A stretch of 62,924 nt of DNA, filler included, from Licmophora abbreviata (Eukaryota): assembly GCA_900291995.1 (NCBI GenBank). It is 13 parts of 13 records of this genome, joined end to end, with 100 filler letters (N's around TTAATTAATTAA, not from the genome) between each part and the next. Parts side by side here need not be neighbours in the genome. Positions count along the whole stretch, not along the records: positions 7,048 to 12,353 come from OLMU01003464.1; 12 more parts are not named here. One strand, 5' to 3'. Below, one piece after another: positions 1 to 18,970 of the stretch. How positions within the stretch are numbered: the stretch's first letter is position 1; every line of letters starts with the position of its first letter. Below the pieces are notes generated by a model that saw only the letters and a list, made by a program, of their open reading frames with translations, ran no database searches and was not told the DNA's origin. Position numbers and translations under genes: made by a program.

Positions 1-2432
1 GCGCTATAAGTGCACTCTGCTGCGCAGCGCCCGGCTTCCTCGGAAGTCCTCTGGATTGAGCCACCTGAAGTGCCCGAGTCACTCGACTGGCTTTTTTCGT
101 CTCGTGCTCTTTGAATCGCAATATCGACTGATACATCCATTCGTATCTCTGCAATTCCTCAATATCCTTCATCAGGAAAGAGTTTTGCTTGATAGTAAAT
201 TGACTCAGAGCGTAGTTATTCTTTGGCGTACTCAATCGTTCCAGAATTCGAAGCGCTTCATTCGAGGTCAGTGCCGAGTTGGGGGTACGCAAGACCGTTT
301 GCAGGCGTCGATGCGAGACGGATTTCAATTGGGAGTTGATTTGATCGGCGCGTCGACTCTCTTCGAAAGCACTGTGAAAACCAAAGAAGTGAAGCTCGAT
401 AGTGTCAGTTCGAGTGATGCATCCATACGTACTCAACACAGTAGTTCAGGTTTGCTTACAGTTGCTCGAGCTCTTGACGTTGCTGATACCACTGCTCTTG
501 ATCGCCCTCACGTGGCATTCTCTGTCCGTTCGCAGGATCGGAGGTCCTCGCATCACGCACGGTTCGTCTTGTGTCGACAGCACCCTCCGGCTCCCACGCA
601 GCAGCACCAGTAGCAAACTCGTTCATGCCAATATCTCCCTGGAGCCTGTTGGCAGTCTTTCTGATAGAGTTTACAGCGCCATTTGTAAAACTGGCTGCCT
701 TCGTCGGCGCGGCGTCGACTGGGTCATCCGTCATGAAGTCACTCGACTTGGCCGTATTGACCGGCACTTTGGCAGCTCCGACAGGTCTTCTTGTGATACT
801 CTGAGTAGTCGTGGGTGCAGCATCGATAGTCGGGGTCGTATCCATGGTGCTCTTCGAGAACCGCTTCACCTTTGCAGTCTCGCTTTTGGCATCTTTATTG
901 ATTTTCATAGTCGTCTTCTTTGGTGCGACGCTCGCAGCTCTTTCCGGATCACCAGCGCTGACCTCTCTGACCCCCATAGGACGCCTGGCAGCATTCTTCG
1001 TCTTGCCCTCAACTGATTTCATAGAAGGCTCATTAGCTCTTTCTGGATCACCAGCGCTGATCCCTCTGATCGGCGACTTAGCAGCATTCTTCGTTTCGCC
1101 CTGAACAGAATCCATAGAGGGCCTATTACTGGCTGTTGTCTTCTCACCGTCAGCTCTTCTTGCGATCGTCGTCCTTGCTGACCTCACAGAAGGCTCATTG
1201 GCTGTTGACTTCTCAGAGGGCTCTTTGTTTGTGGGTTTCTCACCGTCAGCAGTTCTCTTGATCGTCGGCATCTTCTTTCTGGCGGATTCAGCAACCTTCT
1301 GTGCCATCCTGACCGCTTTTTTCGTGACTTCAGCAGTTTTTCTGGATGAGTTTACAGCGCTCTCTGTGATGCTGGCAGCCGTCTCGGTCGCAACCTCCGC
1401 AGCTTTTCTGGTCGCATCGGTCGCCTTCTTCGTAGCATCTGCGGCCATAATGGTGGTATCCGCCGTCTTTCGAAGGAAGGGTACAATCGTGTTACGGAAT
1501 CCCCCCTCGACCATGCGCTCGACATTGTCGGTGAAGGCCTTTGCCTGCAAGGAGCGATCGTATCGCAGTCGCTCTTTCTGATCTCCCAATATTCTCCAGG
1601 CGGCGGCAATCTCACGAAACTCCCGTTCATTCTGGTCTTTGTTACTGCCGCCAACCTTGGTGTCGGGGTGTGTCTGTTTTGCCAACATTGCGTATTTCTT
1701 CTTGAGTTCTGCTCGAGAGTCTTCTGGAGAGGCGCCCAGAATTTCATATAGTGTTCGATCTGTCGAGAGTTGTACAGCTGAATCTTTTTTGTCGTTGTCT
1801 CTGCCAACGCCACGTCGAGGAGCGGCTGATGAATTTTCTTGGTCGTCTGTCTGAAGATCCTTGTACGACGTCTTCTTGCTTTGCGGTCGAGTAGCAGCCT
1901 TTGAGACTCGAGGTGCCATTTTCTCATTGCCAGCGCCCCGAACAGGAAATGCAGATGCATCATCTTCGTCTTCTTCATTGTACAACGTTTTCTTGCTCTG
2001 TCGCCGAGTAACCTTTGCGACGCTGGGTGAAAACTCCTCTTTGTCAGCGCCCCGGAGAGGAAGTGATGGGGAATCCCCATCGTCCTCTTTCTGAACATCT
2101 ATTACATCCTTGTACATCGTCTGTTTTTGTGGTCTAGTGACCTTGGCAAAGCTGGCTGAAAAGTCCTTTTCGTCTGTTTCTTTATCATCGTCATCGTCGT
2201 ACGCGTTGTTCTGTCGTTGGGTATCCTTGGTGATGCCGGACGGCGGCAACACTACTACGGTATTAGACTCTTCCTCTAGTGGCGATGACGGTGATTCGAT
2301 GGACGCAGCCCACGACGCGACACTTCTTCTTGATCGTTGCGATCTCGAACGAGGAGCCGGGTTCAGAAGTCCATTGGCGCTCTCTACGAGCAAGGCGAGA
2401 ATTGTCAAAGCAGTCGCTGGAAGACGTCGCAT
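1..2432 (-). CDS. J-domain (DnaJ) protein with signal peptide and internal repeats; 3' end runs off the window
   Basis: J-domain TLYEILG...KQTHPD...FREIAAAWRILGDQKERLRYD. N-terminal signal peptide (ANG|LL). The ORF-track stop at 456 lies inside a GTAAG donor; splicing intron 372-459 gives an open frame (LAFEESRRADQINSQL...) to the window edge. Confidence 0.8.
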
Positions 2433-8135: not shown

Positions 8136-9344
8136 ATGTGTATTCCGTGCTTCTTCACCATTTCGACGGCAGAGGTGGGAGTCGTCGAGCGATTCGGAAA
8201 GTTTAGCCGCCTCGCAAGCCCAGGACTGTCTTGTGTGCTGTAAGTCATGTCTCTAGTCGATCGTGTTGGGTCGTGCCACCCTGCCGGGATTTTGGTTCCT
8301 TGACTCTGACAACGCCTACACTACTGGTGCTCCGTTCTATACTGCGTTGTACTCGTATTGCAGTTGCCCCTGTGAACAGCTGGTGGGACGTCTCAGTTTT
8401 CGGGTTCAGCAACTTGACGTTCGCGTCGAGACCAAGACACTCGACAATGTCTTCTTGACAGCCGTCGTCAGTGTCCAGTATCAGATTCTTCGCGACAAGG
8501 TCTACGACGGTAAGGTCTTAGGCTGACTGGGGCATCTGAGTCGTACTATATAGCGCTGGCGAATCTGTGTGTTTCTTCTTTACTCATTACAAAACTTCTA
8601 CCCCTCTCTCTCTTGATAATAAAGCCTTCTACGCGCTCACGAATCCGCAACAACAAATCACAGCCCATGTCTATGATGTCATGCGCTCCCAATTACCGAC
8701 TCTAGAGCTTGATGCGGTCTTTGAAGCCAAGGAAGAACTGGCACTGGCCGTCAAGAATGCTCTTTCTGAAACCATGACTGGATAGTAAGTGTTTTTGCTC
8801 TAGGGGAGCGTGTATGGTGGTAGACTGTCGTCGTTCTTTCTTCTTCTTTGCCCGTACAAGGAGACCCACGCTTGCTCTTCTTCTTGTCGTCTGTCTACAT
8901 CTCTTCAGCGGATATCAGATCCTACAGACGCTCATTACAGATCTTGACCCCGACCAGCGGGTCAAGAACGCCATGAATGAAATCAATAGTAGCAAGCGCT
9001 TGAAGTTTGCAGTCGCCGAGCGAGCGGAAGGAGACAAGATTCTACAAGTCAAGAGTGCAGAAGCGGAGGCGGAAGCCAAGTATCTGAGTGGTGTCGGAGT
9101 GGCGAAACAGCGCAAGGCAATTGTCGAGGGACTCAAGAGCTCCATCCTGGACTTTAGCACCGAAGTGCAGGGCTCCTCTACCAAGGAAGTCATGGACTTG
9201 CTCTTGCTCACACAGTATTTCGACATGGTTCGTGATGTGGGACAGGCGAATCATTGCAAGACAACATTCGTGCCGTCCAGTCGCACTTCCGGAGACGATG
9301 TGCGCAATTCCTTGTTGCAGGCCAACATGGCCAAGCTGGCGTAG
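8136..9344 (+). CDS. SPFH/band-7 protein, HIR (hypersensitive-induced reaction)-like
   Basis: VGVVERFGKF, LDVRVETKTLDNVF, ITDLDPD, AMNEIN, EAEAKYLSGVGVA and LLTQYFD. Introns 8240-8363, 8510-8624 and 8785-8908 restore one frame. Confidence 0.93.
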
Positions 9345-9694
9345 GACAAAGAATTATGGCAACTCTAAAACCTACCGACATACTATACAGGAGAGGGAAA
9401 GAAAGTGTATGTACGAGGCTGTGAATGTACCTACTTTTGCATGTAGTTGAATGGTCTAGTCTGCTGTTGTGATGAGAGCTGTACTGTATTATGGTATAGC
9501 TTGTTGCTCGTAATGATGACAATGAGAGGACCGCGGTATATTGAATATCGCGTCGCGATGTGTGATGTGACCGCGCGCACCGCGGCGCCAACCCATAGGA
9601 AACTGAAAGACAAAGGACGCGGACGCTATATTCAATATACACATCATGATGTCCACCAGCACCGATCGCTTGTGTCTGGAGAGCTGACAGAAGG

Positions 9695-11095
9695 ATGAGC
9701 AAGGCTTTGGTTGTCTGTGTAGTACTAGCTTTGGGTATCATTGGGATCAGGAGTGTTGTTGGGTACGAGCCGCACATGAGAGCCAAAATTGCATCGAGCA
9801 TCGCCAAGGGTGAACGACGTGCACAGGAACGCCGAGCAGTGGGGCGGGAGCTTTGCAACCGATGCCGCCGTCCGCCTGTTCAGTGCGTGTGCGACTCTCT
9901 TCCACTAGAACCGATTCCTACTGCCACTGACGTCCTGGTTCTACAACATCCTAACGAGTTTCGGAAGAAATCAGTATCGACTGTGCCACTGCTGTCGCTT
10001 GTTCTACAGAACGTCTGCGTGCTTGTCGGCGAATCCTTCGGTACCGGTTCCGGGCCAGTACGAGATGCCCTTTCAGAAGGCCACAGACTACTACTGCTAT
10101 TTCCGGGAGAAGATGCGATTGATCTGGACTCGCCCTCGTGGAAAGGATTCAACACTGATGCTTTCGATGCGCGTCATCCTCAGTCAAAGACGGTCGATGT
10201 CGATGAGTGCAAGAACACCTTGATTCTGATCGATGGCACGTGGACCCAAGCTGCACGAATGATACGAAACTCGCCCACCTTGCTGCAATGTAGTCAGCCC
10301 GTTCAGTTCACATCCGATTCGGTCTCTATCTATAACGCCATACGCAGAGAGCCCAAGGGGCACTGTCTCTCGACACTCGAAGCATGCGCCCAGGCGCTCT
10401 CCCTCCTTGAACCTGATAGTGACAATGTCAATGTCGCCACTGAGCACCTTCATGCAGCGCTTCAAAGCTTGGTGAAGACACAACTACTGTACAACAACGC
10501 TAGCTCAGCCTCGGATCCTCGCTTTGTCGGTAGGACTCAGAAAACTATGATAAAGAGACGACGAAGTTTGGAACTTGAGACAGATCTGTTTGGTCCTCTT
10601 TCGGAGGATGAGAGTTGCTCAGAGTACAATCATACGGACATTACGAATCCTCCTGTCAGAAAGGAACTACGAGAAGGTGTAGTTCTGCGCTCACTAGAAA
10701 CATCAGATGTACCATTTGTGGATTCGCGATGGCCGTACCGATCCGCAAAGTCCTTCGCGATGATTCATCGCCAAATAAGTGCAGATGGTGGCTCCTGCCT
10801 TGGCATTGATCACAATGGAAAGCTGTGCGCGTTCATTCTTCGCTACCAGAATGGTGCCCTTGGCATGTTGCACGTTGAGGAGGCGTGTCGACGGCGCGGT
10901 TATGGCGCAGCACTGTTGTCGGAAGCAACAAGGCTCCTCGAACTACGTGGTGACACACTATTCGCGTTCATTGTCGATGGCAACAGTGCCTCGGAAGCGC
11001 TCTTTGCAAAACAAGGGTGGGTAAAGGCGGATCCCAACGTCCAAAGGGGAACCGGGAGAAGAAGAGCTAAAAGAAAGTGGGTCAAACCAAGTTGA
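9695..11095 (+). CDS. DTW-domain tRNA aminocarboxypropyltransferase (TapT/DTWD2-like) fused to a C-terminal GNAT (FR47-like) domain
   Basis: CxxC..CxC, LQHPNE, LLFPG, IDGTW and LSTLEA (DTW), followed by LGMLHVEEACRRRGYG and NSASEALFAKQGW (GNAT). N-terminal signal peptide. Intronless. Confidence 0.9.
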   Translation: MSKALVVCVVLALGIIGIRSVVGYEPHMRAKIASSIAKGERRAQERRAVGRELCNRCRRPPVQCVCDSLPLEPIPTATDVLVLQHPNEFRKKSVSTVPLLSLVLQNVCVLVGESFGTGSGPVRDALSEGHRLLLLFPGEDAIDLDSPSWKGFNTDAFDARHPQSKTVDVDECKNTLILIDGTWTQAARMIRNSPTLLQCSQPVQFTSDSVSIYNAIRREPKGHCLSTLEACAQALSLLEPDSDNVNVATEHLHAALQSLVKTQLLYNNASSASDPRFVGRTQKTMIKRRRSLELETDLFGPLSEDESCSEYNHTDITNPPVRKELREGVVLRSLETSDVPFVDSRWPYRSAKSFAMIHRQISADGGSCLGIDHNGKLCAFILRYQNGALGMLHVEEACRRRGYGAALLSEATRLLELRGDTLFAFIVDGNSASEALFAKQGWVKADPNVQRGTGRRRAKRKWVKPS

Positions 11096-11158: not shown

Positions 11159-14100
11159 TTAATTGCTACTGCCGTCAGAACTCGACCTCGATGAGTCGGA
11201 ATCTCCAACTTCATCTTCCTTGTCTTTCTCCCTGTTGTCGTTTTCAATCATTGTTTCATCAGCGACACTCTCGTCGTCATCGGAAGAGTCGCTCTCCCCA
11301 ATAGTGACAACTTCGTCATCATCGTCGACAGTCGCTGCTTGCTTGCTACGTCCCACTATGGCCGTTCCTCCGACTTGAACGCGACCGTCGACTTGCTTGG
11401 GTGGTAGTACCAGCCTACGTGTGGATTCCCATTCGGCGTATGCCTTGGAATCAGTTTGTGTATCGGTGTCTAGGCTGCCCATTGAAAAGAGCGCAAAGTC
11501 CAGCAGGAAGGTATTCGCGTGTAGTCTGTCCAATCTGTCGAAATGACGTTCAGCGTAAGGGGTAATACCAGCGAGGATTTCAGGGATGCCGTCGGTCGTG
11601 GCCAATGTATGGGCCGGAATAGATGTCACGACTGCTTGCACAACCAACATGGCAATATGACAGTTGCGCGCTCTTGTGTTCCAGTCTCGACAATATCGAA
11701 GAATCTGCGTCGTGCGCGTAGCGGGCCAGCCCTTGACATGTCGTTGAAGTGTCTCGAGACCGCTTTGGCCCTTTTGCACATCAGTCTCCACAATTGAGTT
11801 CAGAACCTGTACATTACGAGGAAAAGACTCGTTAGGTCTTATCGACGGGTTCAATAGGCAAATATCACGAGTTGATGAGTTACAACACATACCTTCAGCG
11901 CCTGAAACGGCTTCTCGAGCTCGAGGGCGATCTCGAGTGCCTGCTCGAACTCCTTATGACGCAAGTGGTTAGCTAGCCTTTGCTCCATTAGTATGTTCCC
12001 TTCTTCCGTTTCACGCTTGGTGTCTTCCTCTTGTTGTGTCGTGTCGTTCCATACTACAATGCGAGAATCGGCACCCCCGCTAACAAGAGTCTCACCATCG
12101 GGTAACATGTCGAGAGCCCAAACCTTGTCGCTATGACTGTCCAGGGTTGCCTCGCATTCGTTCGTTCGAATCGTCCATAACTTCACCAAGCCATCCGCAC
12201 CCGCCGATAAGAGCTGCAGTCCAACACTTAGGAATCGCACCCGCAATGCGCTCGCGGCGTGCCCCTGGAAAGTGCGTACGCAGCTATAATCACCCAATGA
12301 CCAAAGCTTGACAGTACGATCGCCACTGGCTGTCGCCACCACTCGATCATACGNNNNNNNNNNNNNNNNNNNNNNNNNNNNNNNNNNNNNNNNNNNNTTA
12401 ATTAATTAANNNNNNNNNNNNNNNNNNNNNNNNNNNNNNNNNNNNNNNNNNNNAAAACTGACAGTCCCAAACTCCACGTCGGTGACCCGTCAGCGTGGCC
12501 TGAAGAGTGAGATCGGTTGAACGCCAAAGTTTCACAGTCTTGTCTTGTGATCCGGTTGCAACGAGCGAATCGTTGGGCGCAAGCGATACAATGTTAATAT
12601 CCTTCCGCGATGGAATAGGATCGGGCCAATGAGATGAGTCGTCGTCGATGCAAATGGGACAGGATCTCACAATTGCGTTTGCAACCTACCTTTTCGTGTG
12701 CGCGGGCACTAACAAATGCACGAAGCGCAATTTCCTTTCCTTCATCTAAAGTTCCAAGCGCATCAAGTTCGGAAGATCCTGGCAGGTTCCATCGCTTGAT
12801 AGTTCTATCCTTACTTGCGGTTATTGCGAAGGAACCACCGCCGTTGGTCGCCGCTCTGCCGGTGACGTCGTATCTGCCTAACTTTCGTGAAAGTGCATTT
12901 GAGCCGACCGCTTCAGTGTGTCCGGTCGCTATCGCGACGCAGCTGACCAGATGAGCGCCCACATGAATGGTTAATAGAGGCAATCTGGAGAAGCCGAATA
13001 CATGACATTGCACAATTTTCACTCACCGTTGACTGCCAAGGTGCCACAGTCGCATTGTATTGTCCTTTCCACAAGTCGCCAGGTATCGACCGCATGGGCT
13101 TACGTCGATACAAAGAACTGTGGCACTGTGTCCATCCAGAACGTCGCACGAGAACGTCTCCAGTTCGAATAGACGGACCTGAGCACTATTTGTTGCGACG
13201 GCAATGCGAGGGTTCGTCGAATCATTTTCAGATACGGATGGAATTACTTTCAAATCCAATATTTCGTCATTGTGCCCCACAATAGTACGCTCAGTCGATA
13301 ACGACGCTCGTTGATTGGTAATTGAAAGGGACAAGAAGGAAAGATTATGCGCGGCATCAGCGATAATGAGTTGCTGTCGAGCGACATCCGAGTGGCTCAG
13401 TGGCTCGCCGTTACCCGAATTCGATGAAAGACCCCGCGGAGCGAATAAAAGTTGCATGTAGCCACCTCTGTCCGCCCCAAAGGCTTCTGACGCATTCTGC
13501 TCATCAAGACAGTCAAAGCCCGAAACACAGGGCGAAGATTTCTGATATTGAGCGTTCCAGACGCGGACGACACCTTTGCTTCCAGCAGTGGCAACTCTGA
13601 GCTCTGATGTCGACGAAGGTAGGACCGTCATTCCCTCGACTTGCTCGTAGATGGGCAACGTATGAATGCGTTTGTACTTGATTTTAGATGCTTCTGACTT
13701 CTGTTTCTTTTTAGTCTTTGATGACACCTCTCGCACAATTTGCCATGTATTCAAGACCGCATCGCGGCCGGCCGACACAAACACGTCCTCCATGTGAGGA
13801 CACCATTCCATGCATGTCACTGCACTCACATGATCTCGCAGCACTACCAAGTTCTTTTCATCACGCAAGTCATGAACCACAATACTGCCATCGTCGCGGC
13901 CAATCGCAATCACTAGATGCGACGCATCATTTCTCCACGACAGACCTGTGACCGCGTGCATTCCACCTCCTCGATCCTCGCCATCACCGCCACCCCGCAT
14001 GGGACGAAAGACATGCGTCACATAAGCTCCCCGAACATCCCATATCCTCACTGTCCCATCGACAGAGGCAGTCGCCAGGAATACGTTCGACGTATGAAAC

Positions 14101-18898: not shown

Positions 18899-18970
18899 GG
18901 TCGCTTCCGAGAATTGAACTCGGGACCTCGTCCACCCTAAAGACGAATCATACCACTAGACCAAAGCGAC
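18899..18970 (-). tRNA. tRNA-Pro (anticodon AGG), intronless
   Basis: Acceptor stem GTCGCTT/AAGCGAC, A-box TGGTCTAGTGG, anticodon arm CGTCT-TTAGGGT-GGACG and T-arm CCGAG-TTCAATT-CTCGG; 72 nt. Confidence 0.95.

Follow-up and report, generated by a model that had tools for sequence, protein, structure and literature searches.

A conserved DTW-GNAT fusion protein of diatoms, a possible bifunctional tRNA-modifying enzyme of the plastid

The window analyzed here, a stretch of 62,924 nucleotides (filler included) from the diatom Licmophora abbreviata (assembly GCA_900291995.1), contains an open reading frame (ORF) that encodes in a single polypeptide a DTW domain, the domain of tRNA 3-(3-amino-3-carboxypropyl)uridine (acp3U) synthases, and a GNAT acetyltransferase domain of the FR47 type (Table 1). 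The frame runs without interruption for 466 codons in the translation of the window; it is open from stop to stop over 9650..11095, the upstream in-frame stop lies 15 codons before the ATG at position 9695, and this ATG is the first in the open frame, with no other between it and the upstream stop. A match to two such domains in one frame is far beyond chance. An earlier note, made from this DNA alone, had described one ORF joining an intact DTW domain to a full GNAT domain, and translation and Pfam confirm this; the motifs that it quoted are all present, namely CNRC...CVC (C54/C57/C64/C66), QHPNE (residues 84-88), DGTW (180-183), LSTLEA (225-230), and RRRGYG (399-404). The fusion has not been merged from a neighboring gene, because the downstream neighbor is a convergent Utp13 gene, the frame of which ends 64 bp past the fusion ORF.

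Table 1. Features of the DTW-GNAT locus, in coordinates of the window
Feature	Coordinates	Residues	Strand	Basis
Whole ORF, 466 amino acids (aa) and stop (leader, DTW, linker, GNAT, basic tail)	9695..11095		+	Sequence, open frame
Hydrophobic leader MSKALVVCVVLALGIIGIRSVVG, signal-peptide-like; candidate cleavage VVG/Y24, followed by YEP	9695..9763	1-23	+	Sequence, rule-based site list
Conserved basic helix (HMRAKIASSIAKGERRAQERRAV), probable tRNA-binding patch	9770..9838	26-48	+	AlphaFold2, 28-fusion alignment, hhalign
DTW domain (acp transferase fold)	9845..10486	51-264	+	Pfam, hhalign, Foldseek
Four-cysteine zinc knuckle (C54, C57, C64, C66)	9854..9892	54-66	+	Invariant in 24- and 28-sequence alignments
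D-G-T-W catalytic/S-adenosylmethionine motif (D180..W183)	10232..10243	180-183	+	Invariant in alignments; aligns to TapT D137..W140
Linker with conserved PRF..G...K..RRR.E.E..LF helix, then low-confidence loop	10487..10678	265-328	+	Alignment, AlphaFold2
FR47-type GNAT domain	10679..11032	329-446	+	Pfam, 1sqh_A match, Foldseek
RRRGYG, GNAT acetyl-CoA motif A	10889..10906	399-404	+	Sequence, family consensus
Conserved basic C-terminal tail, consensus KKGTGxRRAKRKWI	11033..11092	447-466	+	Alignment of 28 fusions
Utp13 gene (small-subunit processome, WD40-associated)	11159-12108		-	Utp13 domain match

The DTW half matches Pfam PF03942 over the full length of the profile (positions 1-195; E 9.7e-43, 146.6 bits against a cut-off of 33.7), and an hhalign comparison of the family profile with Escherichia coli TapT gives a probability of 97.2% (E 3.8e-11). 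In the AlphaFold2 (AF2) model of the whole protein (mean predicted local distance difference test, pLDDT, 84; predicted template-modeling score, pTM, 0.54), the domain is predicted to adopt a SPOUT-like fold resembling that of TapT: TapT crystal structures lead the Foldseek matches (E 8.4e-7 to 1.5e-5; template-modeling score, TM, on the target 0.64-0.70), the best being 9kz5_B (E 8.4e-7, TM 0.70). In the hhalign alignment, C54/C57 fall on TapT C31/C34, P137 on P111, and D180/W183 on D137/W140, while K38/R41/R46 fall on R16/R19/R24 of the tRNA-binding Patch1 (three of the four Patch1 positions are basic) and R188/R191 on K145/R148 of Patch2. These counterpart positions are invariant or conserved across 28 fusion proteins. 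Here and below, statements drawn from the literature refer to excerpts of the cited works. In TapT, the zinc ligands are C31/C34/C41/C43, mutants of P111, D137, W140, and T182 keep less than 20% or less than 10% of wild-type activity, and mutating either of the two tRNA-binding patches abolishes activity (PMC12630136); likewise, D133A and W136A in Arabidopsis DTWD2A, which alter the matching Asp and Trp, leave no modification signal (PMC7704012). Since counterparts of zinc, catalytic, S-adenosylmethionine (SAM), and tRNA-patch residues are kept, we expect an active acp transferase, and that the domain acts on tRNA seems highly probable.

Pairwise scores suggest what kind of acp transferase this would be. 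The DTW domain scores 120 BLASTP bits against a plant protein (P0313), 103 against a fish protein (P0327), and 101 against a myxobacterial protein, as compared with 58.5 for one paralog of Vibrio cholerae and 32 for E. coli TapT, the latter match being confined to the DGTW region; in the Atlas, the nearest clusters bear the names DTWD2 or aminocarboxypropyltransferase. The plant and fish references carry automatic names or none, so we take these scores as a lead that the domain is DTWD2-like, not TapT-like. That TapT, DTWD1, and DTWD2 make acp3U, as the earlier note stated, agrees with the literature (PMC6895100). The DTWD2 type modifies D-loop positions 20a/20b of cytosolic tRNAs (PMC6895100, PMC7704012), and the TapT-like type is the one predicted for plant plastids (Takakura et al., PMC6895100). 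These scores speak against a TapT-like, plastid-type descent of the domain, which was implicit in the earlier note.

Both families of acp3U synthases differ from the diatom protein in architecture. The eukaryotic DTWD2 enzymes (human DTWD2, Drosophila CG10050, Arabidopsis DTWD2A/AT2G41750), which are acp3U20a/20b synthases, share with it the zinc knuckle and the D-x-T-W motif but are described as single-DTW proteins, whereas in the diatom protein the domain is accompanied by a leader, a basic helix near the N-terminus, a conserved linker, and a GNAT domain at the C-terminus. TapT (YfiP/TuaA; PDB 9kyt, 9kz5, 9kza), an acp3U47 synthase, shares the fold and the counterparts of the zinc cysteines, P111, D137, W140, and Patch1, but has neither leader nor GNAT domain.

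The GNAT half passes four GNAT models of Pfam, FR47 (PF08445; residues 373-446, E 7.5e-14, 51.9 bits against a cut-off of 22.1) and three general ones, including Acetyltransf_1 (residues 347-442, E 1.4e-8, 35.4 bits against 20.7). In GNATs, motif A (R/Q-x-x-G-x-G/A) forms the loop that holds the pyrophosphate of acetyl-CoA. The consensus of this motif in the fusion family is RRxGYG, with G402 kept in at least 90% of 28 fusion sequences, and most of the 28 keep motif A together with the core glycines of GNATs; the Arg residues of the motif are lost in P0116, P0104, and P0103. The best PDB match by sequence is 1sqh_A, Drosophila CG14615 (E 9.6e-7, query residues 329-444); next in order come a putative phosphinothricin acetyltransferase and RimI. 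CG14615 is an FR47-like GNAT that has in common with the diatom domain a stretch before the core (LRxL...D...V...WP..); its matching part is C-terminal (residues 174-290 of 312), and in the diatom protein a DTW domain stands upstream instead. By fold, RimI, 1sqh, and Naa50 are matched at E ~5e-6, and the GNAT neighbors among the Foldseek matches listed also include Ard1, a putative phosphinothricin N-acetyltransferase, ArsN, YncA, and EctA (diaminobutyrate acetyltransferase). Some of these names imply acetylation of an alpha-amine, among them RimI, named as ribosomal-protein-alanine N-acetyltransferase, and Naa50 and Ard1, named as amino-terminal acetyltransferases. The skeleton of the acp side chain is also that of phosphinothricin, methionine sulfoximine, and arsinothricin, all of them 4-substituted 2-aminobutanoates, a likeness that is suggestive but generic. 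The predicted activity of the GNAT domain is an acyl-CoA-dependent N-acylation.

Short proteins that resemble the GNAT domain but stand alone were sought by a word-based search; it gave eight matches, 50-65% identical, each of which reads as a fragment of a fusion-family protein. P0208 (884 aa, from the fly Teleopsis dalmanni; 33% identity), with three FR47-type GNAT units in tandem, is one of the nearest relatives of the domain outside the fusions.

The fusion is widespread in diatoms. A word-indexed search of databases recovered 256 relatives, and among the 120 of these that were listed nearly all combine PF03942 with PF08445. The fusion relatives that carry an organism name among the matches listed are all diatoms, both pennate and centric (Amphora, Entomoneis, Seminavis, Nitzschia, Cylindrotheca, Corethron, Skeletonema, and two Thalassiosira species), and some are MMETSP transcripts marked as complete. 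An exhaustive HMMER search found 3178 proteins at E <= 0.001; a search of the ESM Atlas with the whole protein gave no usable match. Local phmmer comparisons with the two halves as queries assigned both domains to 138, DTW only to 89, and GNAT only to 23 of the 250 relatives retrieved for this count. The earlier note had named absence of the fusion from relatives as one outcome that would tell against it; the 138 relatives, complete transcripts among them, show the reverse. Besides the two domains, an alignment of 28 fusions conserves the N-terminal basic helix, the linker helix, and the basic C-terminal tail, which may serve in RNA binding.

Many of the DTW-only entries end directly after the conserved linker motif. 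One case is a DTW half (P0108, 381 aa) and a GNAT half (P0253, 137 aa) that apparently derive as two ORFs from one MMETSP contig of 1670 bases; a Logan contig in the same 90% cluster as P0108 encodes an intact fusion of 544 aa (P0252), so that the split probably stems from a retained intron or a frameshift in the assembled transcript. In a FastTree tree of 168 DTW domains, limited to single full-length matches with split or partial ones left out, fusion and DTW-only labels are interspersed, with 18 changes, at least 6 of them forced by well-supported branches. We do not read these changes as gains and losses, because many DTW-only entries stop after the linker motif or are demonstrably truncated.

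The leader of the Licmophora protein was described in the earlier note as signal-type with Tyr at the +1 position, and both the translation and a rule-based scan find it so (Table 1). In diatom plastid proteins, F, W, Y, or L is the residue sought at +1 of the signal-peptide cleavage site, under criteria of the ASAFAP type. The scan covered 190 members of the family with an initial Met and with the zinc motif at 25-160 residues from the N-terminus. A strongly hydrophobic nine-residue window is present in 140 of them, and in 122 of these 140 there is a site at which F/W/Y/L is preceded by small residues at -1 and -3, as compared with a mean of 79.6 in shuffled sequences and with none of 500 shuffles reaching 122, a statistic that rests on a rule of our own, related sequences, and local shuffles. 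For F/W/Y alone the figures are 69 of 140 against a shuffle mean of 35.7, again reached in none of 500. Many of the sites are ASAFAP-like (CNA/FSA, CSA/FSA, CNG/FST), and in the nearest relatives of the Licmophora protein the site reads [small]/Y-[E/D/N]. The enrichment of F/W/Y/L after the leader fits import into the diatom plastid. The suggestion of the earlier note that an aromatic +1 residue fits plastid targeting gains from the enrichment across the family, although the Licmophora protein itself has almost no transit-peptide stretch after the Tyr.

The DTW clade takes part in other fusions as well. P0202 (755 aa, from an ENA metagenome) consists of a leader ending in AAC/F, a DTWD2-like DTW domain 38% identical to that of the diatom protein, a GNAT domain, and a second, weakly TapT-like DTW domain. 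By BLASTP, its GNAT domain has no similarity to the diatom GNAT domain. P0202, a single cluster of two sequences, represents a second pairing of DTW with GNAT in which the GNAT is not the same, and it is possibly a three-domain acp3U enzyme. In P0169 (718 aa) and P0173 (659 aa), both with hydrophobic leaders, a DTW domain of the same clade (~45% identical) is joined to an RluA-type pseudouridine synthase (PF00849), and in P0214 (563 aa) a DUF218 domain, called the SAM-binding protein YcdF by one source, lies upstream of DTW. On the basis of these fusions, we place the DTW clade firmly in RNA modification.

Taken together, these features suggest a bifunctional plastid enzyme in which the DTW domain installs acp3U on tRNA and the GNAT domain caps its amine, a scheme that we put forward tentatively, at somewhat less than even odds as a whole. 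The signal-type leader and the Tyr would direct the protein along a route from the endoplasmic reticulum (ER) to the plastid. There, the zinc knuckle and the two basic patches would hold the tRNA, and the DTWD2-like domain would move the 3-amino-3-carboxypropyl group of SAM to N3 of a uridine, probably in the D-loop at a position of the 20a/20b type. The FR47-type GNAT domain could then cap the free alpha-amine of the acp group with acetyl-CoA or another acyl-CoA, giving acetylated acp3U (acacp3U) or a related N-acyl form. Observed directly are the architecture and its conservation, the intact motifs of both domains, the TapT-like fold of the model, and the leader statistics; enzymatic activity, location in the plastid, the position in the tRNA, and most of all what the GNAT domain acts on are predictions, held with different degrees of confidence. 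Action of the GNAT domain on the acp amine, which we consider nearly an even prospect, is indirectly suggested by the conservation of the fusion, the fold neighbors named for alpha-amine acetylation, the DTW-GNAT arrangement in P0202, and a weakly positive fold test.

The precedent for such a step is bacterial. acp3U has a primary amine, and V. cholerae acetylates it by means of a separate GNAT, AcpA (VC0317), a stand-alone protein found by comparative genomics that is required for acacp3U (10.1101/723049; AcpA and acacp3U are also cited in PMC12588516); the report of acacp3U in this species mentioned in the earlier note is thus borne out. AcpA is the only known precedent for acetylating the acp amine (10.1101/723049), and it and the diatom GNAT domain both belong to the GNAT superfamily, but the one is a stand-alone bacterial protein and the other is fused to DTW. 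The diatom GNAT domain finds no convincing counterpart in the genome of V. cholerae ATCC 14035 (best match at E 0.35 and 12.5 bits, its frame interrupted by a stop), which has 30 matches to PF00583, VC0317 not being singled out among them; of 401 sampled genomes of the class to which Salmonella belongs, 58 have a match at E <= 0.1, the best reaching 28.5 bits. Orthology with AcpA is rejected at the sensitivity used, and by sequence the diatom domain does not appear to be an AcpA homolog beyond the superfamily. The two are analogous at most; if the diatom domain does the same job, this would be convergence, because there is no similarity beyond the GNAT superfamily. In E. coli K-12 (L001:7224-10614; NC_000913.3 2719223-2722613), a DTW and an acetyltransferase gene also adjoin: patZ lies 31 bp downstream of tapT on the same strand as a separate gene, and it encodes a peptidyl-lysine N-acetyltransferase with a known protein-lysine substrate.

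Several observations weigh against the two-step scheme, among them the results for Vibrio and the other bacterial genomes, the limits of the leader statistic, and the 89 of 250 relatives with a DTW domain alone, which may include genuine stand-alone forms. The contact between the two halves is a further one. With a pTM of 0.54, the AF2 model has no confident arrangement of the two domains, and pLDDT falls below 50 at residues 274-278 and 303-317. A fold test of residues 26-300 against 318-466 scored 0.49 (runs of 0.49, 0.00, and 0.50), with 0.02 for the best of three controls; its runs share at least 44% of contacts, and the pLDDT of the partner is at least 74. The mark of this test is reached by 51 of 78 solved complexes and by 2 of 108 mismatched pairs, and scores of 0.60 or less comprise 5 of the 78 solved complexes and all 4 passing mismatches; a contact between the DTW and GNAT domains is therefore weakly suggested.

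Other explanations concern the substrate of the GNAT domain. The DTW domain may make acp3U while the GNAT domain acts on something else, such as a protein N-terminus or lysine, an aminoacyl-tRNA, another nucleoside, or a small amine, with the fusion serving co-expression, co-targeting, or recruitment. The protein N-terminal acetyltransferases RimI, Naa50, and Ard1 are among the best structural matches, the best NCBIfam match is a weak one to rimI (E 0.0059), the closest solved relative, the FR47 protein CG14615, was deposited as a hypothetical protein, and the listed fold neighbors are generic GNATs of mixed substrates, including serotonin N-acetyltransferase, SpeG, and uncharacterized ones; to these is added the dissimilarity from AcpA. 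Such a loose association is nevertheless at odds with a fusion, linker, and basic tail conserved across named pennate and centric diatoms, with the unrelated GNAT set between two DTW domains in P0202, and with the weak indication of a DTW-GNAT interface, and we regard it as unlikely, though well within consideration. It is considerably less probable that the GNAT domain is non-catalytic and, by binding tRNA or sensing acetyl-CoA, tunes the formation of acp3U. A general-acid Tyr is common in GNATs, and at its place the 28 fusions have an invariant Phe (F437); three members have also lost the Arg residues of motif A. Many active GNATs do without that Tyr, however, and the retention of motif A and the core glycines in most fusions, together with the matches to four Pfam models, speaks for a working enzyme.

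The location of the enzyme is a separate matter from the substrate of its GNAT domain. Its leader could be an ER signal or anchor, or translation could start at Met28, in which case the protein, like DTWD2 in animals and plants, would modify D-loop uridines of tRNAs in the cytosol. Its DTW domain appears to belong to the type described for cytosolic tRNAs, with 103-120 bits to the fish and plant proteins against 32 to TapT and with the Atlas names given above. In the Licmophora protein, about three residues (Y-E-P, with an acidic Glu) lie between the candidate site and the conserved mature helix, and a classical transit peptide is lacking, because just Y-E-P precede the basic helix, the counterpart of TapT Patch1, which we take to belong to the mature enzyme. 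Human DTWD2 is nuclear and cytoplasmic (PMC6895100), whereas the diatom protein has its signal-type leader. This leader is encoded from the first ATG of the open frame, and leaders are found in 140 of 190 members, with F/W/Y/L enriched after small residues and ASAFAP-like sites in some; other members have longer stretches rich in Ser, Thr, and Pro after the site, and in the 68 proteins in which the helix motif was found, a median of 27 residues separates it from the leader. tRNA is not expected in the ER lumen, and since the substrate is tRNA, the plastid stroma would be the only sensible end of an ER-type route. Arabidopsis chloroplast tRNAs have acp3U-like reverse-transcription marks at 20/20a/20b and 47 (preprint 10.1101/2024.06.14.598963), so that a eukaryote-type D-loop enzyme in a plastid is not far-fetched. 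On balance, we find a plastid location probable and an extraplastidial one unlikely.

That the fusion is an artefact of a gene model or an assembly, with two genes read as one, is hardly credible. In its favor, P0108 and P0253 are the two halves called as distinct ORFs on a single MMETSP contig; the one 257-base contig from a sequencing run of presumed RNA type, which covers 9818-10066 with one mismatch, is uninformative on transcript structure. Against an artefact, the frame is open for 466 codons, the 138 relatives with the fusion include complete transcripts, and P0252, from the cluster of P0108, is intact.

No description of a DTW-GNAT fusion was found in the literature, where the papers listed on the DTW domain with acetyltransferases were judged by title or abstract, and the earlier note, which knew of no such description in eukaryotes, is consistent with this. 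In the survey of the TDD superfamily by Burroughs and Aravind (2014; PMC4275035), none of the fusions named in the excerpts has a GNAT domain; the word 'GNAT' is absent from its text, where 'acetyltransferase' is confined to the reference list. The papers listed on acacp3U include none on eukaryotes, and a search for papers that join acp3U with diatoms found none. Databases name the fusion relatives automatically as aminocarboxypropyltransferases.

acp3U is widespread, and the reasons for making it, and for its acetylation by Vibrio, are poorly understood. The conserved fusion predicts an N-acyl-acp3U in diatom plastid tRNA. In its broadest form, which we consider rather unlikely to hold in full, the proposal would be that diatom plastid tRNAs carry N-acylated acp3U made by one polypeptide and that capping of the acp amine arose at least three times with unrelated GNATs (Vibrio AcpA, the diatom FR47 type, and the P0202 type). 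Three independent cappings, if true, would point to a general need to neutralize the acp amine. The diatom protein would then be the first bifunctional acp-transferase/acyltransferase of eukaryotes, and its product their first nucleoside of the acacp3U type. The range of acacp3U would widen from a single genus of bacteria to a major group of eukaryotic algae, and an FR47-type GNAT would gain a first substrate. It would also be a nuclear-encoded tRNA enzyme of eukaryotic type in a plastid, in line with the acp3U-like D-loop marks of Arabidopsis chloroplasts.

Other genes in the window were noted in passing. Upstream of the fusion, 8814-9344 (+) is an ORF of 176 aa in which Pfam finds nothing at E <= 0.001; it is possibly a single exon from a larger gene. 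ARAGORN detects one tRNA gene in the whole window, a tRNA-Pro(AGG) gene at 18899-18970 (-). The Utp13 domain of the convergent downstream gene is spread over two ORFs, suggesting a short intron near 11850-11890.

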